32,000 nucleotides of DNA from Clostridia bacterium (GTDB taxonomy: Bacteria; Bacillota; Clostridia; TANB77; RGIG9151), in NCBI GenBank assembly GCA_017934955.1, contig JAGBIO010000003.1, positions 1 to 32,000 on the forward strand, in the 5' to 3' direction. The number at the start of each line of letters is the position of its first letter. The first letter of the stretch is position 1. The translations under genes and the position numbers were made by a program. A model generated the notes under the pieces. It was not told the origin of the DNA. It worked only from the letters and a program-made list of their open reading frames with translations, and made no database searches. Positions 18 to 31,536 of this stretch are shown one piece after another.

Positions 18-136
18 TTCCGGTGACGATAATGAAGAGGATACACCCGTTCCCATCCCGAACACGGCAGTTAAGCTCTTCGATGCTGAAAATACTTAGC
101 GGGTGACTGCTTGGGAAGATAGGAAGTTGCCGGGAT
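18..136 (+). rRNA. rrf: 5S ribosomal RNA (ends +/-3 nt)
   Basis: Sequence ccggtgacgat...cccgttcccatcccgaacacggcagttaagctcttc...gttgccggg matches the conserved Firmicutes 5S core. The terminal helix ccggtgac/gttgccgg closes the molecule. A tRNA follows, as at rRNA operon 3' ends. Confidence 0.9.
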
Positions 137-6702: not shown

Positions 6703-6856
6703 GTTACTATTCAAACTTAAAATTATAAAAATGGCACAAATACTGTAGGGACAGCATTTATGCTGTCCACGGAAAAGGTAGAAAGTAGGACAGCATGAAT
6801 GCTGTCCCTACAATGGTTGTACCATTATTGTAGGCGATATAGTTTGATTAGTAACC
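6703..6856. mobile_element. Complete 154-bp MITE-like element with REPIN core, inserted in a terminator loop
   Basis: Ends gttactattcaaact / agtttgattagtaacc. Core hairpins at 6745-6768 and 6788-6811. Flanking direct repeats taaattt (6696-6702) and taatttt (6857-6863). Confidence 0.85.
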
Positions 6857-11712: not shown

Positions 11713-13617
11713 ATGGGCAAAACGTATTTTAACGATGGAATTACGGGGAATGGAAAATTGCTTGTTTCTTTTACGGATAAAGGGGAAGCGAATCGTGTTT
11801 TTTGGCCGGTGCAAGATTATGCACAGCAGATGAATCATATTTGGATGGGTTTTAAATTTGACGATTCTGTGACGAAGTTTTTGCATGAGAATTTATGGTA
11901 TGTGGAACAGTTTTATGATGGAAAAAGTAATGTATTGGTGACGAGTTACGAGAATTCGGATTTTGGCTTGAAGATTCTGCAGAAGGATTTTGCATTAAAT
12001 GATAAGGATGTATGGGTTCGTCATTATGAGGTGACCAATATTTGCGATCGTGATCTGTATTTGAGGGCGTTTTTGCATACGGATTTTATAACGGCGGACC
12101 ATAATGTTCGCAGTGGAATGATGGATTTTTCTTCGAATTGTGCGGTAATTTATAATAAGGAGCATACGGTTGCAATCGGTTCGGGCGAGAAACTTGCCGG
12201 ATTTCAGTTTGGAAATGCGATGAATGCTGCGGTTAATGATTGTTTGTATGGAAAAGATGAGATTTCCATGACGTCGGATATGGCGTTAAAGTGGGAATTT
12301 GGTGTTTTGGCTCCGAAGAAAAAAGTAGAATTCAGTGTATTTTTCTGTTTCTCTTATGATTGCTCAGATGCAATTGCTTTATTCAATGAAACAAAAAACG
12401 AGAAGGGAAACTTTTTAATAGAGTGTGAGAAGAAGTATTGGGAAGAGGAGTTTCGGAAGTATAATAAATTTGTTACGGGAAATGAAAAGGTTGATGATGT
12501 GTATTTTAAGTCGATTTTGACTTTTAAACTTTTAACAAATGCGGATACCGGGGCGATTTTGGCGGCGGTGGAAGTGGATGAGAATTTTACGCGGTGCGGT
12601 CGCTATGGGTATTGCTGGCCACGTGACGGTGTGTTTATTACAAAAGCATTTGATTTGTGTGGAATGACAGAAGAGGCGGAGCGTTTTTATACGGTCTGGG
12701 CGAAAAAGGCACAGCTTGCAAATGGGGCATGGCAGCAGCGGTATTACTTGGATGGAAAGTTGGCTCCTTCATGGGGAATTCAAATTGATGAAATTGCGGC
12801 GATTATTTATGGGGCCTGGAGTCATTTTGAGCACACGAGAAAATTGAGCTTTTTGGAGGAAATTTGGAGTTCGATAAAGCCGGCAGCGTTGTATCTGATG
12901 AATCATATAGATGGAGAGACGGGGCTTCCGATGGCGTCTTATGATTTGTGGGAAGAGCGTTTTGGGGAGCATACTTATTCGGCGGCTTCTGTGGTGGCGG
13001 CGCTACGGTGTGCGGCGTTTATGGCGGAGGAGCTTAAAGTGGATATTCCGCTTGCAAATTTGTGGAAAAAGGAAGCGGATAAGATAAAGGAAAGCATTCT
13101 TCGTAATTTATGGAATGAGGATGAAAAGAAGTTTTTAAGAGGAATCAGAACGAGATTGAATTGGTGGAATTGTGAGACGGTTTCTCTTCCAACGAATGAA
13201 ATGGGCTATCGGATGGATGTTGCGGCTGTGGATAACATTGTGGATATTAGTTTATTGGGGCTGACCATTCCGTTTGATGTGTTTGCTGTGAAGGATGAGA
13301 AGATAAAGAGAACGGTTCGGGCGATTGAAGATCGATTAGATGGTTTCCCTGCCGGCGGATTCGGGAGATATGAGTATGATTCGTATATCGGTGGAAATCC
13401 TTGGGTTATTTCGACGCTGTGGTTGGGATTATATTATGCAGAAATCGGAGAAGTTGAGAAGTGTAAGGAGAAGCTGATGTGGGCGGTAAAAAATGCGACG
13501 AAGCTTGGATTTTTACCGGAGCAGGTGGACAAGTTTAATGGCGGACCTGCTTGGATTATGCAGCTTGCTTGGTCAAGCGCGATGTTTATTATTACGTTAT
13601 ATGCGTTAAAGAAATAA
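11713..13617 (+). CDS. Glycoside hydrolase family 15 (glucoamylase/glucodextranase/trehalase-like), cytoplasmic
   Basis: Motifs YGYCWPRDGVF and SYDLWEERFGEHTYS are typical of the GH15 (alpha/alpha)6 domain. I prefer the ATG at 11713 (GGAGG 8 nt upstream) over the track TTG at 11653. No signal peptide. Confidence 0.85.
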   Translation: MGKTYFNDGITGNGKLLVSFTDKGEANRVFWPVQDYAQQMNHIWMGFKFDDSVTKFLHENLWYVEQFYDGKSNVLVTSYENSDFGLKILQKDFALNDKDVWVRHYEVTNICDRDLYLRAFLHTDFITADHNVRSGMMDFSSNCAVIYNKEHTVAIGSGEKLAGFQFGNAMNAAVNDCLYGKDEISMTSDMALKWEFGVLAPKKKVEFSVFFCFSYDCSDAIALFNETKNEKGNFLIECEKKYWEEEFRKYNKFVTGNEKVDDVYFKSILTFKLLTNADTGAILAAVEVDENFTRCGRYGYCWPRDGVFITKAFDLCGMTEEAERFYTVWAKKAQLANGAWQQRYYLDGKLAPSWGIQIDEIAAIIYGAWSHFEHTRKLSFLEEIWSSIKPAALYLMNHIDGETGLPMASYDLWEERFGEHTYSAASVVAALRCAAFMAEELKVDIPLANLWKKEADKIKESILRNLWNEDEKKFLRGIRTRLNWWNCETVSLPTNEMGYRMDVAAVDNIVDISLLGLTIPFDVFAVKDEKIKRTVRAIEDRLDGFPAGGFGRYEYDSYIGGNPWVISTLWLGLYYAEIGEVEKCKEKLMWAVKNATKLGFLPEQVDKFNGGPAWIMQLAWSSAMFIITLYALKK

Positions 13618-13820
13618 GGGACAGCATGAATGCTGTCCGTACAGGAAGGAAGAAATGCGTTTGTAGGGACAGCATTTATGCTGTCCACAGAAAAGGCGGA
13701 AAAGCGGGACAGCATGAATGCTGTCCGTACAGGAAGGAAGAAATGCGTTTGTAGGGACAGCATTTATGCTGTCCACAGAAAAGGCGGAAAAGCAGGACAG
13801 CATGAAAGCTGTCCCTACAG
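13618..13820. repeat. Tandem array (about 2.3 x 88 bp) of REP hairpins filling the GH15-radA gap
   Basis: gggacagcatgaatgctgtccgtac recurs at 13618 and 13706 (and, with two substitutions, at 13794). gtagggacagcatttatgctgtcc recurs at 13662 and 13750. Five hairpins in total. Confidence 0.9.
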
Positions 13821-13856
13821 GAAGGAAGACTGTAAAATAAAACGAAGGAGGTTCTT

Positions 13857-15224: not shown

Positions 15225-15225
15225 A

Positions 15226-15249
15226 GGACAGCATGAATGCTGTCCGTAC
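15226..15249. repeat. Solo REP hairpin 1 nt after the radA stop
   Basis: ggacagcatgaatgctgtcc + gtac. Confidence 0.8.
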
Positions 15250-15359
15250 GGGTTTGAAAAATAAAAAACAAATGGATAAAATTGCAGGATGCGTAAGAGG
15301 GAAGATTGATAAAATTGCACTGTGTGGCACTTATGGTGTCCATGAAAGGGATGATTTGG

Positions 15360-17065: not shown

Positions 17066-17081
17066 GTGAATGGAAGCAATG

Positions 17082-17110
17082 GTAGGGACAGCATTTATGC
17101 TGTCCTTTTG
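17082..17110 (+). terminator. REP hairpin followed by a T-run, probable carD terminator
   Basis: gtagggacagcatttatgctgtcc followed by ttttg, 17 nt after the carD stop. Confidence 0.55.
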
Positions 17111-17146
17111 CGTATACAATAGAAAATATTGATTCAAGCCTTCTTT

Positions 17147-17173
17147 CGGGACGTCGAGGACGCCGTCCCCTAC
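17147..17173. repeat. Solo GC-rich REP variant (cgggacgtcgaggacgccgtcccctac)
   Basis: Identical to the module at 1442-1468 and near-identical to 31378-31404. Confidence 0.8.
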
Positions 17174-19229: not shown

Positions 19230-19256
19230 AAATAACAATGACGCAAGTCTTTATTA

Positions 19257-19410
19257 GTTACTATTTAGACTATATCTCTTAAAATAATGGTACAATCTTT
19301 GTAGGGACAGCATTTATGCTGTCCGCAGAAAAGGCGAAAAGCAGGACAGCATAAATGCTGTCCCTACAGTGTTTGTGCTATTTTTATAATTTTAAGTCTG
19401 AATGGTAACC
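19257..19410. mobile_element. Complete 154-bp MITE-like element with REPIN core
   Basis: Ends gttactatttagact / agtctgaatggtaacc. Core 19301-19366. Flanking direct repeats tttatta (19250-19256) and tttattt (19411-19417). Confidence 0.85.
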
Positions 19411-19428
19411 TTTATTTTGTAATGTTTT

Positions 19429-20444: not shown

Positions 20445-20603
20445 GTTACAGTTCAGATTGAAATTTTGTATCTAAAAATATTGTCGGAATGTGGCTTGTA
20501 GGGACACAATTCATTGTGTCCTAATTCCAATGTCAGGTTATTTTGTGGACACAATAAATTGTGTCCCTACAGGGTTTGTGCTGACTCTATAAATTGAATC
20601 TAA
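20445..20603. repeat. MITE-like element, ACACAA stem subfamily, right end degenerate
   Basis: Left end gttacagttcagattg. Hairpins gtagggacacaattcattgtgtcc (20498-20521) and ggacacaataaattgtgtccctac (20547-20570) are separated by a 25-nt spacer. Confidence 0.75.
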
Positions 20604-24288: not shown

Positions 24289-25287
24289 TTATTTGCCTTT
24301 ATAGCTATTATGTTCCTCTAAGGTTTGGCTGAAATAGTGTTCTCCGTTTCCTACGGCTTTGGCACGATAATAAAGATAAGGCGTTTCCTCCGGTTCTAAT
24401 GCAGCTTCGATACAGGCTTTTCCGGGTGAGGCGATAGGGGTCGGCGGAAGTCCTTTGTATTTATAAGTGTTGTACGGGGAGTCGACCTCTAAGTCTTTAT
24501 AGAGAAGTCGTTCTTTTTGTTCCGGTAGGAGATATTGAATGGTGGCATCAATTTGGAGCAACATGCCTATTTTAAGACGATTATGGATGACACTGGATAT
24601 TGTTTTCCTTTCCGAATCAATTTTTGCTTCACGCTCGATTAATGACGCAATAGTGACAATTTCCTTTACACTGAATCCAAGAGCGTCTGCTTTTTTTTGA
24701 TAGTCTTCTGTCCAAACTTTATCAAATTGATTTAACATAGTTTGTATGATTTCTTTTTCTGTCCAAGTAAGCGGAATCGAATAGGTTTCCGGGAACAAAA
24801 AACCTTCCAATTGGCGATAATCGTTGCCCTTTTCCATATAGTCGTAAGGTAGTTCCATAGAGCCGGCATATTCGAGGAATTTTGTCTCATCGACAAGTCC
24901 TTTTTGAGAAAGCATTGCAGCAATTTGTTTTACGGTGTAGCCTTCGGGTATCGTTACCAAGATTGCTTCTGCTTGATTCCCCTTTAGAAGGGTTTCGAGA
25001 ATGTTGTCAAAATCGACTTTTCCCGGTCCGAATTTATAATTGCCGGGTTTTAGAGAAGCAGTTGCGTCTTTTTGTTTGATAAAGAAAACAAAGGCGGAAG
25101 TATTTTTAATAATTCCGTTATTTTTTAAGTTTTTTGCAATGCTTTTCGTTCCGGCACCTTCCTGAATCGTGATTTTAATTTCCTCTTTTAAGGTAACTTC
25201 GTCAATGTGAATTACGTAAAAAATGCCAAGTAGCAAGAAAACAGCAATAAAGATAATTCCGATTTTTAAGATTAAATTTTTTTTCAT
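24289..25287 (-). CDS. mltG: Endolytic murein transglycosylase MltG (YceG-like)
   Basis: N-terminal TM. Motifs IASLIEREA and YNTYKYKGLPPTPIASPG. The ATG overlaps the upstream TGA (ATGA). Confidence 0.9.
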   Translation of the reverse strand: MKKNLILKIGIIFIAVFLLLGIFYVIHIDEVTLKEEIKITIQEGAGTKSIAKNLKNNGIIKNTSAFVFFIKQKDATASLKPGNYKFGPGKVDFDNILETLLKGNQAEAILVTIPEGYTVKQIAAMLSQKGLVDETKFLEYAGSMELPYDYMEKGNDYRQLEGFLFPETYSIPLTWTEKEIIQTMLNQFDKVWTEDYQKKADALGFSVKEIVTIASLIEREAKIDSERKTISSVIHNRLKIGMLLQIDATIQYLLPEQKERLLYKDLEVDSPYNTYKYKGLPPTPIASPGKACIEAALEPEETPYLYYRAKAVGNGEHYFSQTLEEHNSYKGK

Positions 25288-26816
25288 TTTAGTTTCTCCT
25301 TTTCCGATGATTTTGATGACGTCAAGGCGAGTGCCGCCATAATCTGTAATACGAAAGAGACAATAAAGGTGTAACGGGATTGAACTTCCATTAACATAAG
25401 CGCACCTTCAAATCCGAGGAGCAGTAGTCCCATCAGGCAAGTGATGTCATTTTTTCTGTATCGGATACTGTAAATAAATACACCAATAAGAAGAGTACAG
25501 GAATAGATACTTGAAAGTATATAAAGCGTGGTAAGGGAGTTCGGATATTGGTCTAAAATAGATTTAGACCAATAAATTCCGGCAAAATCATTTTGCGCCC
25601 AAATTGCGTGTGTTTTTGTAACAAAGAGCAGTAAGATTTTTTCTGGATTTTGTGTTAAACGTTCAATAAGACGTGTTTTAATTTCTTTTTTTATTTCTTC
25701 TAAATTTCCGTTTTTCTCAAAATAAATATTCTGATCTTCCGCTGAGAAAGTTCCATTCGTTTCAAAGTTGAAACCAACCAAGCAATAAATGGTATAAGGA
25801 ACGGCGCTTTTGTCTAAATAATATTTGGTTACACCGGTTTGGTAAAGGGTAACGCTGACGCTTTGAAAAATAAGGATATAGGTAACCAATAGCGTAAAAA
25901 GTGCCGATAACTTTCGTTTCTTTGTTGTATAGGAAAAATCGAAGATTTTGCCTATACAACAAAAAACGCTCCGCGAGGATGCACACTCACGCGAAAGGAA
26001 TGTTGCTGCGCAACCCGCGTTCGGCGCAGGTGTTTTGCCTTCGCAAAACACTTTTGTTCCAAATATTGTCAAAATGCCTATTCCGTATGCGGCGAGGTAC
26101 ATCGGTGCGACGCCTCGATAGAGGGAACCGACAGTAAGAAAAATTCCGGAAAGAAAAACGTAGCTTAGCATTTTCTTATGCGGTTCCGTATTTTGATATG
26201 CTTTTATTAAGAAATAGAGAGAAAGCATAAAAAACGGCATGGCGAAGTTTTCTGTAATTAAAACCGAAGAATAGGCGATTGAAGCAGGAAAAATACTATA
26301 TAAGAAGGCAGCAGCAAGCCCTGTTTTTCGGCTTTTTATCGTTTTCCCAATTCCGTAGAGAATCGGAATACAAGCGATTTGTAATAGTAAATTGATGATT
26401 TTAATTGGCAACAGCGAGCTTCCGAAGCACTTTATAATTTGTGCAAGGGTAAAAACATAAACCGTAAGGTGCGGGAAACGATGAAAATAGGATCCTTCTT
26501 GAAATGGAGAATTCCCGGTTGCCAAATCAATTGCGGAACGATACATCACTTCGTAATCACTTACCGGTACCGTAGGAACGTTTGTAATCCATATCGCACG
26601 TAGTACAACTCCTAAAAGCAGGAGAACGGTAAGTAAAATAATTGTCTGTCTTTTTGAGGGTTCTTTTATTTGAAAGAAAAGTAACCCGAGAAAAATGACG
26701 GTAGCGACGGAGGAAACAGCGATGATTATTCCGTAATTTTTAATGGCGGTATTTATGGAAAAATATAAGATCACTGCGACAAATGCAATTAAGACATAAT
26801 TAAAAAAATACTTCAT
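25284..26816 (-). CDS. GT-C fold polytopic glycosyltransferase (PMT_2/ArnT-like, GT39/83-like) carrying a 48-codon atypical insert
   Basis: Many TM helices throughout. The start is uncertain: the ATG at 26816 is preferred, and 26849 and the track start 26876 are alternatives. The stop overlaps the mltG start. Confidence 0.75.
   Translation of the reverse strand: MKYFFNYVLIAFVAVILYFSINTAIKNYGIIIAVSSVATVIFLGLLFFQIKEPSKRQTIILLTVLLLLGVVLRAIWITNVPTVPVSDYEVMYRSAIDLATGNSPFQEGSYFHRFPHLTVYVFTLAQIIKCFGSSLLPIKIINLLLQIACIPILYGIGKTIKSRKTGLAAAFLYSIFPASIAYSSVLITENFAMPFFMLSLYFLIKAYQNTEPHKKMLSYVFLSGIFLTVGSLYRGVAPMYLAAYGIGILTIFGTKVFCEGKTPAPNAGCAATFLSRECASSRSVFCCIGKIFDFSYTTKKRKLSALFTLLVTYILIFQSVSVTLYQTGVTKYYLDKSAVPYTIYCLVGFNFETNGTFSAEDQNIYFEKNGNLEEIKKEIKTRLIERLTQNPEKILLLFVTKTHAIWAQNDFAGIYWSKSILDQYPNSLTTLYILSSIYSCTLLIGVFIYSIRYRKNDITCLMGLLLLGFEGALMLMEVQSRYTFIVSFVLQIMAALALTSSKSSEKEKLK
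25917..26060. repeat. GC-rich multi-hairpin segment lying in frame inside the GT-C gene (second repeat family)
   Basis: Four hairpins: ttgttgtatagg-N17-cctatacaacaa (25921-25961), cgcg..cgcg, ctgcgc..gcgcag and gtgttttgc-cttc-gcaaaacac. The 29 nt at 25933-25961 recur at 28079-28107 with 2 mismatches. Confidence 0.6.
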
Positions 26817-26838
26817 TTTTCTGAAAATCACCTCAACT

Positions 26839-27822
26839 CTAAGTTTCATACTTTTTTTTCTTTCGTGTAAACACAAAAAATTTAGTTAATAAAAAGGTAA
26901 TCGGAATTCCGATAATCGCCGCTAACGTGTAAGCAATCAGTTTGTCCCAATGTAGGATGTTGTAGATGATAACGACGCAGAGGTTTTGGATCATAAAGTT
27001 CGGTATGTAAGCAATCGCAAATTTGATAAATTTCATAAAAGATAATGTTTTATCCTGAAAGGTAATCCGACTGTTGAGTAGGTAGGAAATACATAAGCTA
27101 AGCAGATATCCTAACACAAAAGCTGTATTTGGGTCAGCGAAAGCATTAAACAGCATGGAAAAGAGAATTCCGTTAAAGGTATTGATACAACCTACAAAAA
27201 GAAAGAGAAGAAATTGTTTTGAGAAGAAATTCTCTAAGAAAAGTTCTGTTTTGCTTTTTTGGTAACTGTCCCATGCAATCATTTTTTCTTTTTTGACGAT
27301 AAAGGCATTTTGCGCCAATTCTTTTAACGGAGTATCGGAGAAAGAATCTGAGTAAAAGGTATCGATTTTTCCTTCCGTTTCTTTTGCTAAAAATTCCGTC
27401 ACTTTTTGCATTCCGTAACAATTTTCTCCGGTTATTGTTCCGGTCGTTTTATTCATATTTGTGGCAATCAGATTCGGTTGGTTGATTTCTTTTAAAACCG
27501 GCTGAAGGAGGAAGGTAGGGGAGGCGGAGATGATATAGTCGGAGGAAGAAATTCTTTCTGTTAATTCTTTCCGAAGGTGCTTCGATTCCTTTTTCCAAAA
27601 CGCATCTAAGTAAGAATCGATATCTTTGATTCCCTTTAAAAAAGAGAAAAAATTTTCCTTCCATTCTTTTTTCGGAATGAACCCCAAAATATATTTTGTA
27701 AGCGAAAGACATTGCTTTGGCAGATATCTTAACAAAAGTGGATTTTTGCGAAGAGAAAACAAGTAAAAATTCACTGTAGAATCGCCCTGATACAATGTTT
27801 TATCAAAATCGTAAACGTTCAT
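26839..27822 (-). CDS. HAD-superfamily phosphatase fused to a GtrA-like membrane domain
   Basis: HAD motif I YDFDKTL at the N-terminus and FYSDSFSDTPL (motif IV-like). The C-terminal 130 aa has four TM helices typical of GtrA. I prefer the ATG at 27822 (aaggag 5 nt upstream). The track start at 27894 reads through the repeat element. Confidence 0.8.
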   Translation of the reverse strand: MNVYDFDKTLYQGDSTVNFYLFSLRKNPLLLRYLPKQCLSLTKYILGFIPKKEWKENFFSFLKGIKDIDSYLDAFWKKESKHLRKELTERISSSDYIISASPTFLLQPVLKEINQPNLIATNMNKTTGTITGENCYGMQKVTEFLAKETEGKIDTFYSDSFSDTPLKELAQNAFIVKKEKMIAWDSYQKSKTELFLENFFSKQFLLFLFVGCINTFNGILFSMLFNAFADPNTAFVLGYLLSLCISYLLNSRITFQDKTLSFMKFIKFAIAYIPNFMIQNLCVVIIYNILHWDKLIAYTLAAIIGIPITFLLTKFFVFTRKKKKYET

Positions 27823-27835
27823 AAAAACTCCTTTT

Positions 27836-28107
27836 TTATTGTATAGGTCAGAATTAAATTTATAGAAATAGCATAAATAGTGTAGGAACAGCATTTATGC
27901 CGTCCACAGAAAAGGCAGAAAGCAGGACAGCATTGCGGACGTAACACCGTGAGTGTAACGAACGGCTTGTACGTCCTATACAAAGAAACTCCAAGAACGT
28001 AGTGATTGGGAAGTTTCGACTGTTAATGCTGTCCCTACAATGGTTGTACCATTATTGTAGGAGATATAGAACAGTAACAAAAACTGAAGATTTTGCCTAT
28101 ACAACAA
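27836..28107. repeat. Composite: family-2 hairpin interrupted by a MITE/REPIN copy that itself carries a 90-bp nested insert
   Basis: ttattgtatagg (27836-27847) | MITE 27848-28078 | aaaaactgaagattttgcctatacaacaa (28079-28107). The second REP hairpin is split at 27933/28024. Confidence 0.8.
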
Positions 28108-28131
28108 CGAAAATACAATAGTTTGTTCTAC

Positions 28132-28995
28132 TTAATTCCAATAAGGAAGAATGTAAATCAGTGTAAAAATAGTCGCACCGTATAATAAAACAAGTAAAAA
28201 TAAGAAACGATCGTGAAGTAGAGTGGAAACCGGATCGCCGTCGGAAATTCCTTCGACGGTTAAACTATATTTCATGCAGATAATCATTACAAGCGGGACT
28301 GTCCACATGATATGCGGTATCAATTCCACCGTATCGATGCACCACATTGCATAAAAGACAATCGTGAGTGCGACACAAACATACATATTTTTATCTAAAA
28401 AGTTTTTGTTGTATTTTGAAAGCACTTTTCTTGTACCGGTTTCGTTCTTCAAAACTTCATTTCGTCTTTTTCCAAGTCCGAGGTAGAAGGACATTGCCAT
28501 TACCGTAAGATACAGCCAGTCGGAGACAGCAACATTAATTAATGCAGCCCCAAAGAAAACACGGAGAATAAATCCGACGGATAAAACCGCAATATCAATA
28601 ATCGGCACGTTTTTTAAGTAGAAGGAATAGAGGAGGTTTAGAATTAAGTAAGTAAGGATAAGCGGATGCGGTAGAAAGGAGGAGAAGCAAATATAATTTA
28701 GACTTATTATCAAAATAGTTAATACTAATATAAATATTACGGCTTGTGTTTTGCTGACTCTTCCCGAGGCAATCGGGCGATTCTTTTTGGTCGAATGGTT
28801 TCTGTCTTTTTCGGCGTCGAAGATATCGTTTAAGATATAGACAATTGAGCAGGCAAGCGAAAATAAAATAAAGCCAAAGAATGTTTTTTTCAATAATTCC
28901 GGTTGCAGTAAGTTACGGCTGAAGAGGAGTGGCAGGAAAATCAAGCCGTTTTTGATATAATGTTTGATTCTCATTAATTTTATATAGTCTTTCAA
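28132..28995 (-). CDS. UbiA-family prenyltransferase resembling decaprenyl-phosphate phosphoribosyltransferase (DPPR synthase)
   Basis: Motif NDIFDAEKDRNHSTKKNRPIASG follows the ND..D...DR.H.TK..RPIA.G pattern that I associate with the Rv3806c-type subfamily. N-terminus MRIKHYIKNGLIF. TTG start with a weak SD. Confidence 0.75.
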   Translation of the reverse strand: MKDYIKLMRIKHYIKNGLIFLPLLFSRNLLQPELLKKTFFGFILFSLACSIVYILNDIFDAEKDRNHSTKKNRPIASGRVSKTQAVIFILVLTILIISLNYICFSSFLPHPLILTYLILNLLYSFYLKNVPIIDIAVLSVGFILRVFFGAALINVAVSDWLYLTVMAMSFYLGLGKRRNEVLKNETGTRKVLSKYNKNFLDKNMYVCVALTIVFYAMWCIDTVELIPHIMWTVPLVMIICMKYSLTVEGISDGDPVSTLLHDRFLFLLVLLYGATIFTLIYILPYWN

Positions 28996-29022
28996 TTTAT
29001 TTCAATCCTTTCTGATGCTTTT

Positions 29023-29078
29023 GGACAGCATAAATGCTGTCCCTACGAAGTTCTATACAGACAGCATTTATGCTGTCC
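29023..29078. repeat. REP hairpin pair in the LtaS-like/UbiA intergenic gap
   Basis: ggacagcataaatgctgtccctac (29023-29046) and gacagcatttatgctgtc (29060-29077). The pair ends 4 nt from the upstream gene stop. Confidence 0.85.
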
Positions 29079-29082
29079 GATT

Positions 29083-30906
29083 CTACGATAATGTTGCATC
29101 AATCAATTTTTTCCCATGCAAATAATCGTACTGGGTATATTTGTACTGTTTTAACAGCGGATTATTTAAGAAATCCGGTTTTCCTATGTAGTCGCCGTTT
29201 TCATCGCAGGCAAAGTACGGATGAATAACGGTGTAATTAGCGTAAATTTTATTAAATAATTTCGAATACCAAGGAATATTGGTAAGGTTCGCAGTCATGA
29301 GTGTTTTTAATCCTAAGTTTGCAGGGCTGATTCGTTTCGGATAAATGGTTTTATCTAACGGGAAATTTGCCCAAACAATATACGGTGTTTCAAACATTGC
29401 CGGATTTTCCGAAAGTTCGCCGGAAAAGAAGCCGGTATGAATATAGGTACTGCTGTCAATTCCCAAGAATGGCAGATGATCGCCGTATATAGTAATTAAA
29501 GTCGGTTCACCGACGTTTTTGAAATATTCCGTTAAGGTATAAAAGGATTGGTCGATGTCGTAGATTCCTTGTACGGCATCTTTTAATCCGGCTAATTCTT
29601 CGTCGGTGACTGCGTCGGATGTGACATCGATATCGTAACTGTCATAGCGTTTTTCTAAATAATTTCCGTGATTTTGCATGGAAATGGCATAAATAAAAAT
29701 CGGTTCTTCCTCTTTTTCTTCGAAGGTCTTAATGATTTGCCGTGTTAATTCCATGTCGGAAATGTAGATTCCTTTTTTCTCGGGATTTTCAAAGTCCTTA
29801 TCTCCGTAAAATTCCTCGAATCCCATTAGATCATAGGCGGTATCTCGATTATAAAATTTCTTATCATAGGTATGTAAAGCTGTCGTGGAATAGCCTTCCG
29901 ATTGACAGATAGAAGCAAGCGAAATCGTCGGTTTTAGGATGTATTGACTGTACGGATAACTTCCAACCGGAAGAAAGGCAGAGGAAAATCCTGTCAGAAA
30001 CTCAAATTCCGGAATACAAGTATTACAACCGTAAGATGGAGAAACAACTTGTCCTGCCGGAAAGGTTTTCCCTAAACGATGAATATTCGCAAGAGGATCG
30101 GCAGATAGCGTAATGTTTGGCATTAAAGTCGGGTCCCAAAGACTTTCGCTCTGAATAGCGATAATATTGATTTTTTCTGTTTCTTCTTCCACCGGATAAT
30201 ACTCTTCGATGTCGTTATTGGCAAAAAGAATATTCGACATAGTTTCTTGGTTATAGTTTTGATAAGGTGCGACTCTTAAATCTCCGATTCTTGTGAAAAA
30301 GGTTAAGATCAGTCCGTTTTTGTTGTAGTCGTTGATAATATAAAAGTTCGACAAAGGAACTCCCAATTTCGGCAAAAGTTCATGCCGAAAGGAATAATTA
30401 AAGCAAAAACAATACAAAACCGTAACGCATAGCACAAAACTGCCAAGCGTCTTTGGAACAGAAAAACGCAGGCGGTCGCTCTTTTTATAAAGGTAAGTGT
30501 AAACAATCAGGTGTGCAACAAGAATAATCGCGGAAATCACCATATAGCGATCTACCGGAACTTTTATAAAACTTACGATATCTTCTAATTTTCCCGCCAA
30601 TAATAAATTCGCCGGTAACAACGGATCCGAGGTAATTCGTATTTTAATCCGACAAACAATTGCCATGATAAAGAAAAACAAATTAATCGTATAAAAGCTG
30701 ATAATTTGTTTCTTAAACAGGTTTCCAAGAAAAATTTGCAAAGCAGAAATAAACAAGAAGGATAAGGCAGTGTTCATCAGAAGTTGTAGCGGTGTATTAA
30801 AAGAAAGCGGTGAATTTCCGCCAAACCGAAGGATATCTAAAAGAAAAACGGTAATAAGCGGAGAGATATAATAATAAATTCTTTCCAAAGAAATTTTTTT
30901 CGTCAT
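29083..30906 (-). CDS. LTA-synthase/sulfatase family membrane protein (LtaS-like)
   Basis: An N-terminal polytopic region is followed by an extracytoplasmic sulfatase-type domain with GCNTCIPEFEFLTG (Thr nucleophile motif G..T...EFE.LTG). I prefer the ATG at 30906 (ggag 7 nt upstream) over the track start at 30969. Confidence 0.8.
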   Translation of the reverse strand: MTKKISLERIYYYISPLITVFLLDILRFGGNSPLSFNTPLQLLMNTALSFLFISALQIFLGNLFKKQIISFYTINLFFFIMAIVCRIKIRITSDPLLPANLLLAGKLEDIVSFIKVPVDRYMVISAIILVAHLIVYTYLYKKSDRLRFSVPKTLGSFVLCVTVLYCFCFNYSFRHELLPKLGVPLSNFYIINDYNKNGLILTFFTRIGDLRVAPYQNYNQETMSNILFANNDIEEYYPVEEETEKINIIAIQSESLWDPTLMPNITLSADPLANIHRLGKTFPAGQVVSPSYGCNTCIPEFEFLTGFSSAFLPVGSYPYSQYILKPTISLASICQSEGYSTTALHTYDKKFYNRDTAYDLMGFEEFYGDKDFENPEKKGIYISDMELTRQIIKTFEEKEEEPIFIYAISMQNHGNYLEKRYDSYDIDVTSDAVTDEELAGLKDAVQGIYDIDQSFYTLTEYFKNVGEPTLITIYGDHLPFLGIDSSTYIHTGFFSGELSENPAMFETPYIVWANFPLDKTIYPKRISPANLGLKTLMTANLTNIPWYSKLFNKIYANYTVIHPYFACDENGDYIGKPDFLNNPLLKQYKYTQYDYLHGKKLIDATLS

Positions 30907-30998
30907 TTGTACGCTCCAATCCTCGACAAAATATATAAATATTGTAATATATTTGGCGAGAAATTGCAATTCGAATGTTGTGTAAATGAGTATAGAAA

Positions 30999-31116
30999 GT
31001 TACAATTCAGAATCTAATTTATAGAGGAAGCACAAACGCTGTAGGGACACAATTCATTGTGTCCCCAAAATAGGCAGATGCTTAGAATTAGGACACAATG
31101 AATTGTGTCCCTACAA
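30999..31116. repeat. MITE-like element, ACACAA stem subfamily, right arm truncated
   Basis: Left end gttacaattcagaatc. Hairpins at 31041-31064 and 31091-31114. The spacer is the diverged reverse complement of the one at 20522-20546. Confidence 0.75.
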
Positions 31117-31179: not shown

Positions 31180-31270
31180 TGGCGGAAAGAGGGGGATTCG
31201 AACCCCCGGTACCTGTTACAGTACGCACGCTTTCCAAGCGTGTGCCTTAAGCCAACTCAACCATCTTTCC
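31180..31270 (-). tRNA. tRNA-Ser (anticodon GGA), long variable arm, CCA encoded
   Basis: The reverse complement reads GGAAAGA-TG-GTTGAGTTGGCTTAAGGCAC-ACGC..TTGGAAA..GCGT-long variable arm-GGGGG-TTCGAAT-CCCCC-TCTTTCC-G-CCA. The anticodon loop is ttGGAaa. Confidence 0.9.
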
Positions 31271-31342: not shown

Positions 31343-31536
31343 GTTACAGGTTAGACTCAAAATTGTCTCAAATATATCGGAACGTTGGGGACGCCGTCCC
31401 CTACAATGTTTGTACAGGTATTGTAGGGACAGCATTTATGCTGTCCTGCTTTTCTGCCTTTTCTGTGGACAGCATGAATGCTGTCCCTACAATGATTGTG
31501 CCATCATTGCAGAAAAATGTAGTATGAATAGTAACC
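31343..31536. mobile_element. Complete 194-bp MITE-like element with extra GC-rich hairpin module and inverted core
   Basis: Ends gttacaggttagact / tatgaatagtaacc. Extra module at 31378-31404. Core at 31421-31490 with spacer tgcttttctgccttttctgt. Flanked by a perfect direct repeat ggaaaat (31336-31342 and 31537-31543). Confidence 0.85.

Follow-up and report, generated by a model that had tools for sequence, protein, structure and literature searches.

A stretch of 32,000 nucleotides from a Clostridia bacterium (GenBank assembly GCA_017934955.1, contig JAGBIO010000003.1, positions 1 to 32,000; hereafter the window) was analyzed. It was found that a polytopic GT-C glycosyltransferase gene in this window has a hairpin-rich element of 135 nucleotides nested in frame inside its open reading frame (ORF). 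The element is most probably a non-autonomous miniature of an insertion sequence (IS) of the IS91 family, the rolling-circle type with a Y2 HUH transposase, and was inserted in the codon for Ala-253. As sequence comparison shows, only the functional ends of an IS of this type are present in it: an oriIS-like end (hairpins 3 and 4) and a terIS-like end (GAAC, AAAAG, and hairpins 1 and 2). The gene, the element, and its parts lie at the following window positions.

25284..26816, minus strand: polytopic GT-C glycosyltransferase gene (PMT_2/GT39-like), 510 aa from ATG; the insert is residues 253-298
25925..26059, minus strand: inserted element, 135 nt, 45 codons; borders set by comparison with the ends that autonomous IS copies show at different sites
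25921..25924 (TTTG) and 26060-26063 (CAAA), plus strand: target flanks; reconstructed empty site TTTG/CAAA
25925..25959, minus strand: hairpin 4, the oriIS-side subterminal palindrome, TTGTATAGG-CAAAATC-TTC-GATTTTT-CCTATACAA; the most conserved module of the family
25964..25987, minus strand: conserved interior core, plus-strand sequence AAACGCTCCGCGAGGATGCACACT; overlaps hairpin 3 (25972-25993)
25972-25993: hairpin 3, from folding
26006..26029, minus strand: hairpin 2, CTGCGC ... GCGCAG, from folding; GC-rich part of the interior; the homologous region is indel-rich in the relatives L132-L135
26030..26059, minus strand: terIS-side end, GAAC-AAAAG and then hairpin 1, GTGTTTTGC-GAAG-GCAAAACAC (26030-26051)

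Anatomy, borders, and empty site

On the minus strand, which is the coding strand, the element stands in the "transposase orientation": GAAC-AAAAG, hairpins 1, 2, and 3, a T-run, and hairpin 4 ending in ...CCTATACAA. Since this polarity matches that of the IS copies described below, the four hairpins represent two ter-side palindromes (1 and 2) and two ori-side palindromes (3 and 4). The two ends are unlike each other (TTGTATAGG... versus ...TTTTGTTC), and terminal inverted repeats are absent. The minus strand folds as DNA at -37 kcal/mol (z -6.1) and the sense strand as RNA at -59.8 kcal/mol (z -6.2); in either case, none of 200 dinucleotide shuffles folded as well. A weak terminator-like site lies inside the insert on the sense strand (25991-25972).

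The original prediction, made from the letters of the window alone, had described a GC-rich, hairpin-dense insert of 144 bp that adds 48 amino acids at codons 273-320 of the 25284-26816 ORF. The hairpin density is real, the four hairpins were found (26030-26051, 26006-26029, 25972-25993, and 25925-25959), the length is a multiple of three, stop codons are absent, and the ORF translation contains the quoted peptide. The insert is, however, 135 nt long, the net gain is 45 residues, and the residues concerned are 253-298 of the 510-aa ORF; the codon numbers 273-320 result from a longer version of the ORF with a TTG start at 26876. The insert is also more GC-rich (47%, its core 55%) than the remainder of the gene (37%), but about 7% of the 135-nt segments across the 32 kb reach this value. 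Thus, the GC content alone is not exceptional and not decisive.

In-silico excision of 25925-26059 leaves an open 465-aa ORF without a stop codon, which reads ...GILTIF-A-KKRKLSALF as in the homologue consensus. The split codon is GCA (G/CA) for Ala-253. Alanine is the commonest residue at the excision point among the closest homologues, and the homologue P0003 has TVFAKKRKL. The minus-strand junctions are ttg/GAAC...ACAA/caaag. No bases are repeated after excision, that is, a target-site duplication is absent. The borders had first been placed at 25922-26059 (138 nt) and at 25923-26057 or 25921-26055 (135 nt); the IS ends then gave 25925-26059.

A BLAST search of a protein database gave only ten homologues at E < 1e-10, with 35-40% identity, and in all ten precisely 45 residues are missing between ...TIFG and KKRKL. 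In an exhaustive search of 1.84 billion representatives with HMMER, 2356 homologues were found; for nearly all of the best 150, the alignment is broken into two stretches, approximately residues 1-253 and 299-499. In an alignment of 84 sequences, 62 of the 83 homologues have a single residue where the host protein has 46. The expectation that orthologues lack the segment was thus borne out. In a minority of homologues, the loop length varies from 4 to 27 residues. The longest loop, that of P0162, was considered as a relative of the insert and rejected, as its sequence is unrelated and its gene has 59% GC. It is an independent 27-residue expansion at the same inter-helix turn of a distant GT-C homologue (L131 1835-1948), and its DNA is strongly structured with 68% GC. 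This turn seems to be a permissive spot for expansion.

Two contigs (56.4 and 56.6 kb) encode the identical protein (P0001), and the contig was seen in three samples. Thus, the insert is not an assembly artefact, and an assembly chimera was ruled out. An intein or an intron was also ruled out, the insert having features of neither.

The ends are those of IS91-type insertion sequences

In the IS91 family, ori lies downstream and ter upstream of tnpA, the ends have subterminal palindromes, and there are no inverted repeats (PMC13181058). A GTTC, CTTG, or GTCC tetranucleotide is found at ter and a target tetranucleotide beside ori, and no target duplication is made (PMC13181058). Minimal ends suffice for transposition in trans, as a mini-IS91 with ends of 89 bp and 82 bp demonstrates (PMC13181058). 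Small IS801 fragments of 229-679 nt with the ori end and a GAAC-type tetranucleotide also transpose in vivo (PMC3189936).

I clustered 212 ORFs adjoining copies of hairpin 4. The sole transposase-like group was an IS91-type pair from the loci L042 and L092. The other ORF clusters beside the hairpin were discarded as mobilisers; the groups whose sequences were read look housekeeping-like. The L042 transposase (390 aa) matches Pfam Y2_Tnp (7.5e-34) and Zn_Tnp_IS91 (1e-20). It has more than 4500 homologues; all of those listed carry Y2_Tnp and most also carry Zn_Tnp_IS91. Most of these homologues are encoded on contigs of 1.5-2 kb, which is typical for collapsed IS copies.

Eight IS contexts were fetched; for the comparison with the window element, the ends of the copies in L042, L123-L126, and L129 were used. 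The autonomous IS, found in gut metagenome assemblies, is about 1.7 kb long. It starts with CAAG or GAAC, AAAAG, a short hairpin with a 4-nt loop, and a second hairpin. These are followed by tnpA, a small ORF of 71-79 aa, and the terminal TTGTATAG...CCTATACAA hairpin. In L042, L092, and L123-L130, hairpin 4 is found downstream of the gene for the transposase, while GAAC or CAAG and AAAAG with a hairpin are located upstream. The IS encoding P0023 was found with at least two left flanks and three right flanks, which diverge exactly at the end motifs.

Hairpin 4 of the window is identical at 34 of 35 nucleotides to the end of the L042 IS downstream of the transposase gene. The ter end of the window element, GAACAAAAGTG, agrees at all 11 nucleotides with the left end of the L125 IS, in the matching orientation. 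In total, the ends coincide with those of at least six divergent Y2-transposase IS copies with the correct polarity. The ter tetranucleotide is GTTC in the window element and in most small elements, GTCC in L064, and CTTG/CAAG in the IS copies of L042, L125, L126, and L129. GTTC, GTCC, and CTTG are all canonical in the IS91 family. Likewise, the autonomous relatives have a Y2 HUH transposase with a zinc domain, the two ends are unlike, and there is no target-site duplication. On the ori side, the window element is flanked by CAAA and other copies by CAAA, TAAA, or TTAA; CAAA is one mismatch from CAAG, and for most copies the search pattern had fixed three of the four bases.

By analogy with IS91, a transposase acting in trans would nick the ori end, and one strand would be peeled off as far as the ter tetranucleotide. 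The resulting single-stranded circle would then be inserted beside a CAAG-like target, here CAAA, without duplication of the target.

Two further observations concern the autonomous IS group. The 71-79-aa ORF just downstream of tnpA is conserved (L042 1033-1250, L124 1503-1718, L126 3194-3415, and L129 1448-1687). Its product has two CxxC pairs and is zinc-ribbon-like, with no Pfam match. A 91-kb faecal virome contig (L136, MT835472.1) has an IS91-like transposase gene at its start, whose product is 47.6% identical to P0012 (sites 1-30 and 1370-1425). In this contig, an ori-like end ...TTTCCTATAAAG is directly followed by TAAAAAAGAATGTGCCTTGGCACATTC, which is the hairpin on the ter side of L133 and L134, two of the GC-rich mini-elements. 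The arrangement might represent a junction of ori and ter or a partial copy in tandem.

A dispersed family of small elements

One genome per bacterial and archaeal species (GTDB) was scanned with a 19-mer from hairpin 4, TTGTTGTATAGGMAAAATC. It matched at least 104 loci, nearly all of them in uncultured gut Clostridia genomes (human, rabbit, chicken, and mouse). Among the matches listed, dozens of species are represented, with at least nine copies in one genome. I found 21 full small elements of 129-158 nt that have both termini in common; with the virome relatives described below, the transposase-less elements range from 126 to 158 nt. Their architecture is the TTGTATAGG...CCTATACAA hairpin, an A-run, a variable middle hairpin, and a terminal GC-rich hairpin ending in CTnTTGTTC. 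The small elements are located directly after the T-run of gene terminators. The flanks at the hairpin-4 end are T-rich and end in TTTG, CTTG, or ATTG, the last three bases being fixed by the search pattern. A covariance model built from ten small elements, with the window excluded, matched 25922-26061 from end to end (55.1 bits, E 4e-11). Its other matches in the window and the 4.8 kb beyond (E 0.006-0.09) were rejected as hairpins of the unrelated REP-like family described below.

Relatives of the interior were found in ten unannotated human faecal "Bacteriophage sp." virome contigs. The four that were examined (L132-L135) are 126-128 nt long and have the same hairpin order, in surroundings of 44-50% GC. 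They have a common core, AAACGCTCCGCGAGGATGC(A/G)CACT, that is invariant except for one A/G position (alignment A5), while L017 and L033 have the interior core in part. Such higher-GC relatives may explain the foreign-looking interior in a genome of 38% GC. A distant-mode blastn search of a plasmid collection gave no match to the insert. The original prediction had proposed a search for further copies in the genome. A dispersed family does exist, and one degenerate copy is present in 37 kb of the host genome, but the GC-rich interior is not repeated in the window.

Are other copies also nested in genes? Of the approximately 95 other hairpin copies in the loci that were fetched, not one is inside a real ORF. 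Two intragenic candidates among them were rejected: L023 is an antisense artefact, and L091 is a chance match. As the insert-derived peptide is also found in no other protein (see below), the family is not prone to gene incorporation, unlike Rickettsia palindromic elements (RPEs). The window copy has a length of 3n and three of six frames open, whereas other members have mostly zero or one open frame and 28-38% GC. Thus, with a length of 3n and no stop codon in the landing frame, it keeps the gene open, and it looks like a rare survivor.

The same big hairpin was also observed in a composite family (L002, L005-L007, L009, L010, L016, L018, L022-L025, and many others). Its order is GTGGC-TTCG-GCCAC, GTGCAnnTTGC-TTYG-CAAnnnGCAC, AGCCCAAGGAAACTTAACC, and TTGTTGTATAGG...CCTATACAATAA, with a loop expansion of 25-35 nt in some copies. 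Thus, the hairpin is a module common to several element families in many genomes. In addition, many of the hairpin matches are no more than a few dozen bases away from the end of a contig (L004, L020, L029, L030, L039, L061, L095, and L101). This suggests that the hairpin repeats and the parent IS routinely break short-read assemblies of gut Clostridia.

A second copy and a co-resident REP-like family

A further copy of hairpin 4 is present in the window.

27839..28128, plus strand: second, degenerate copy in the intergenic region between ubiA and the HAD/gtrA gene, in the same orientation as the gene copy

It is the sole further copy in the 37 kb of host genome. Its order is TTGTATAGG (27839-27847), a doublet of repetitive extragenic palindromic (REP)-like hairpins (approximately 27848-28078), AAAAACTGAAGATTTTGCCTATACAACAA (28079-28107), CGAAAATACAATAG, and TTTGTTC (28122-28128), which ends 3 nt before the ubiA stop codon. 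The recurrence of the first hairpin of the insert at 28079-28107 had been noted earlier. It holds with 29 nt and two mismatches (22 nt exact, E 3.6e-7 in the window), but this hairpin is the first on the plus strand only and the last on the coding strand. The copy corresponds to a short hairpin-4 element (the ori hairpin, 14 nt, and TTTGTTC) split right after TTGTATAGG by the REP doublet. The nesting has three levels: a hairpin loop of the doublet holds an insertion of about 95-105 nt (27920-28024) with another TTGTATAGG and a GGACGT...ACGTCC hairpin.

The REP-like family, GTAGGGACAGCATTTATGCTGTCC, is unrelated to the element and has at least 14 hairpins in the 32 kb. They are of the GTAG type (TTGTAGGGACAGCATTTATGCTGTCC, with the variants GGACACAAT...ATTGTGTCC and GGGACGTCGAGGACGCCGTCCC) and often form inverted doublets of about 150 nt, which are REPIN-like. 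A tandem array with an 88-nt period lies at 13611-13786. The family looks like a REP/RAYT-type system. The insert has neither a GTAG-plus-palindrome motif nor similarity to this family.

REP-like sites, left half of the window: 332-372, 424-524, 1435-1585, 6703-6855, 13611-13846, 15225-15272
REP-like sites, right half of the window: 17079-17173, 19249-19412, 20495-20599, 27840-28069, 29008-29079, 30996-31116, 31371-31521

Effect on the host protein

The 510-aa protein matches PMT_2 (Pfam PF13231, E 1.8e-10), and Foldseek matches of its model include STT3, AglB, PglB, Pmt4, and ArnT. D87, the conserved Asp of the first outer loop that marks the GT-C class, is invariant in all 84 aligned sequences. 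All 12 columns that are invariant across the 84 homologues are retained by the insert-bearing protein.

According to the predicted translation, the insertion turns Ala-253 into Gly followed by 45 further residues (TKVFCEG...FSYTT), which lengthens the protein by 45. From the 84-sequence alignment, AlphaFold2 gave a model with a pLDDT of 90.5 and a pTM of 0.91. In this model, residues 252-283 are coil at a pLDDT of 47-54, while residues 284-298, which derive from the big hairpin, prolong the next transmembrane helix. The inter-helix turn is thus predicted to grow from about 5 to about 50 residues, mostly disordered. The original placement of the insert in a loop between two transmembrane helices agrees with the AlphaFold2 model, in which the loop has low confidence. 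The loop is probably cytoplasmic, because this follows from the helix count starting at the outer-loop Asp-87 and because the KKRK after the insert fits the positive-inside rule.

It is likely that the insertion is a tolerated and probably neutral passenger. It may be tolerated because the copy is frame-compatible and hit a permissive turn. The richness in cysteine and alanine is likely a by-product of translating GC-rich palindromes. It might be speculated that the cytoplasmic loop, with its six cysteines, has been recruited to a function such as the sensing of metals or redox state by the glycosyltransferase.

Weighing the interpretation

Several points weigh against a mobile IS91-type miniature that the gene tolerates. 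The tetranucleotide beside the ori end is CAAA, which is non-canonical compared with CAAG or GAAC, and an IS91-type transposase is absent from the 37 kb of host genome. The outer arm of many small elements, in which GAACAAA pairs with TTTGTTC, has no internal partner in the window copy. Rolling-circle mobilisation itself is deduced, by analogy, from family resemblance. The closest homologue is about 44% identical, so that the gap in the homologues is not equivalent to an empty site of the same species. The nearest relatives of the interior are only about 72-77% identical and come from hosts of higher GC, and a second copy of the GC-rich interior was not found in the window. The core GCGCAACCCGCGTTCGGCGC gave 17 matches in JGI metagenomes, all by chance, on contigs of 61-69% GC. 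Six-frame translations searched against 5.8 billion proteins matched the host protein only, in a search of low sensitivity for the 15-aa hairpin part. Finally, since three of six frames are open, the open frame is weak evidence for selection, and the gene could be newly hit and non-functional.

This last point leads to the alternative that survives best. The insertion would be real but the gene dead or dying, its open frame a matter of luck in an incipient pseudogene. With three of six frames open and a length of 3n, about half of the random insertions by the window copy would keep a gene open, and the structured 135-nt RNA (-59.8 kcal/mol) with its weak sense-strand terminator-like site could lower expression. 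The ORF is nevertheless otherwise intact, with all 12 family-invariant residues, a confident GT-C model, and a 4-nt operon-style overlap with the yceG-like gene downstream, and the loop tolerates variation in length. I therefore regard a dying gene as unlikely.

It is far less probable that the segment was never mobile as a small element. In such a scenario, a full IS of about 1.7 kb was inserted and later lost its interior, leaving 135 bp in frame by chance. The ends of the insert are indeed those of the autonomous IS, and an identical small copy was not found in the available host-genome sequence. However, elements of 126-158 nt with the same internal architecture are present at many unrelated loci, and relatives share the interior core of the window copy, which independent deletions would not recreate. 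Moreover, the gene would have been inactive for as long as it contained the 1.7-kb insertion.

Mobilisation by another system, such as a RAYT-mobilised REP/REPIN or a palindrome-associated IS200/IS605 element (Y1), is about equally improbable. Their ends are likewise hairpins, with neither inverted repeats nor target duplication. A genuine REP-like family is dense in the window, one member of it is nested in the second hairpin-4 copy, and insertion beside T-runs and terminator hairpins is typical of single-strand transposons. Against this, the insert lacks the GTAG-plus-palindrome motif and any REP-family similarity, and both of its ends coincide, in the right polarity, with those of the six or more divergent Y2-transposase IS copies. 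Among the 212 ORFs beside hairpin 4, the IS91-type pair (L042 and L092) is the sole transposase-like group.

A lineage-specific loop expansion whose repeat resemblance is coincidental or secondary can practically be dismissed: a minority of homologues do have loops of varying length (4 to 27 residues), but the 27-residue loop of P0162 is unrelated and belongs to a gene of 59% GC, 34 of 35 nucleotides are identical to an IS end, the covariance model matches from end to end (E 4e-11), excision restores the consensus residue exactly, and the peptide is in no other of 5.8 billion proteins.

Neighbouring genes

The following minus-strand genes are found around the glycosyltransferase gene (25284-30969): a sulfatase/LtaS-like gene (29083-30969), a UbiA-family prenyltransferase gene (28132-28995), a gene for a HAD phosphatase fused to a GtrA-like transmembrane domain (26839-27822), the GT-C gene, and then a YceG/MltG-like gene. 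The set of UbiA, phosphatase, GtrA, and GT-C resembles the mycobacterial decaprenyl-phosphate-arabinose pathway. By this analogy, the locus may be a glycosylation locus for cell-envelope polymers based on a polyprenyl-phosphate-linked sugar. An Rfam scan of the entire window at gathering thresholds gave a 5S rRNA and two tRNAs, and no match for the insert. The 5S rRNA gene and a tRNA gene lie at the left edge of the window (19-135 and 146-218) and the other tRNA gene at 31183-31270, with REP-like hairpins near both edges.

Implications

In-frame insertion of small repeats, transposing IS801 fragments, and an engineered mini-IS91 mobilised in trans are already known (PMC10969869, PMC3189936, PMC13181058). 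On the other hand, no description of standardised, multi-copy IS91 derivatives of about 130 nt was found, in Clostridia or elsewhere, in the searchable literature, the coverage of which is partial. The IS91-derived miniature family thus seems to be undescribed. It is conceivable, and I propose it tentatively, that the window copy is the first recognised member of an abundant, undescribed class of "mini rolling-circle" elements of 126-158 nt. This class would derive from a divergent IS91 branch, would be present in dozens of gut Clostridia species and in faecal virome contigs, would home to terminator T-runs, and would occasionally be exonised. If true, mini rolling-circle elements would be to prokaryotes what non-autonomous Helitrons are to eukaryotes.

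In most cases of in-frame repeat insertion (RPEs, ERIC, and others), neither the transposon of origin nor the precise chemistry of insertion is known. Since the borders are defined to the base, the empty site is reconstructed, and the parent IS family is named, the present case is directly testable. IS91-type elements spread resistance and virulence genes, and high-copy miniatures are not known for them. With a standardised family of about 135 bp, the minimal ori and ter signals of an entire IS91 branch would be defined, and mechanistic work would gain a natural substrate. The small elements, together with the REP family, fill intergenic regions of small gut Clostridia genomes and probably break assemblies. 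The host protein is also a natural example of a polytopic membrane enzyme that apparently tolerates 45 additional, disordered residues in a tight turn between two helices.

Comparison with known systems

The analogy with RPEs, drawn in the original prediction, is essentially correct. Like the insert, RPEs are palindromic repeats of about 100-150 bp that are nested in frame in housekeeping or metabolic genes, encode a fold-compatible peptide, and keep the ORF open (PMC10969869). However, the insert is an IS91-family miniature rather than a generic palindromic repeat, and it is probably unrelated to RPEs in sequence. Copies inside genes are common among RPEs, with 44 of them in ORFs of R. conorii, and encode conserved peptides, whereas the family of the insert rarely enters genes and is almost always intergenic, located after terminators. 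The parent transposon of RPEs is unknown, while the IS91-type parent of the insert is identifiable. As for membership of the RPEs themselves, the insert is set apart by its host and relatives: the host is low-GC and Firmicute-like, and the relatives are in gut Clostridia and faecal virome contigs.

IS91, IS801, and IS1294 share with the family of the insert unlike ends, palindromes, the ori/ter polarity, the ter tetranucleotide (GAAC, CAAG, or GGAC type), and the lack of target-site duplication. The Clostridia transposases are at most 34% identical to annotated IS91-family transposases in plasmids. The small elements (126-158 nt) are far shorter and form a standardised multi-copy family, in contrast to sporadic truncation products. 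Their ori-side target appears to be A/T-rich (CAAA/TAAA and terminator T-runs), compared with CAAG/GAAC in the IS91 family. The accessory small ORF is downstream of tnpA in the Clostridia IS, whereas orf121 of IS91 is upstream.

[quoted passage not shown] In-frame fusions of MITEs with host ORFs are "not unusual" according to a 2024 review, which is silent on IS91 or rolling-circle derivatives (PMC10969869). The window element lacks both the terminal inverted repeats and the target-site duplications of classical MITEs. REP/REPIN and IS200/IS605-derived elements are similar to the insert in their hairpins, the lack of inverted repeats and target-site duplications, the single-stranded-DNA-linked insertion, and the intergenic abundance. 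These systems depend on Y1 enzymes and a GTAG-plus-palindrome motif, whereas the family of the insert is associated with a Y2 enzyme and has TTGTATAGG...CCTATACAA and the GAAC-AAAAG hairpin.

Non-autonomous Helitrons are also transposase-less HUH rolling-circle derivatives with short unlike termini, a subterminal hairpin, a high copy number, and incorporation into genes. They differ from the insert in that they are eukaryotic, depend on RepHel, have 5′ TC and 3′ CTRR ends and an A-T target, and are on average much larger.

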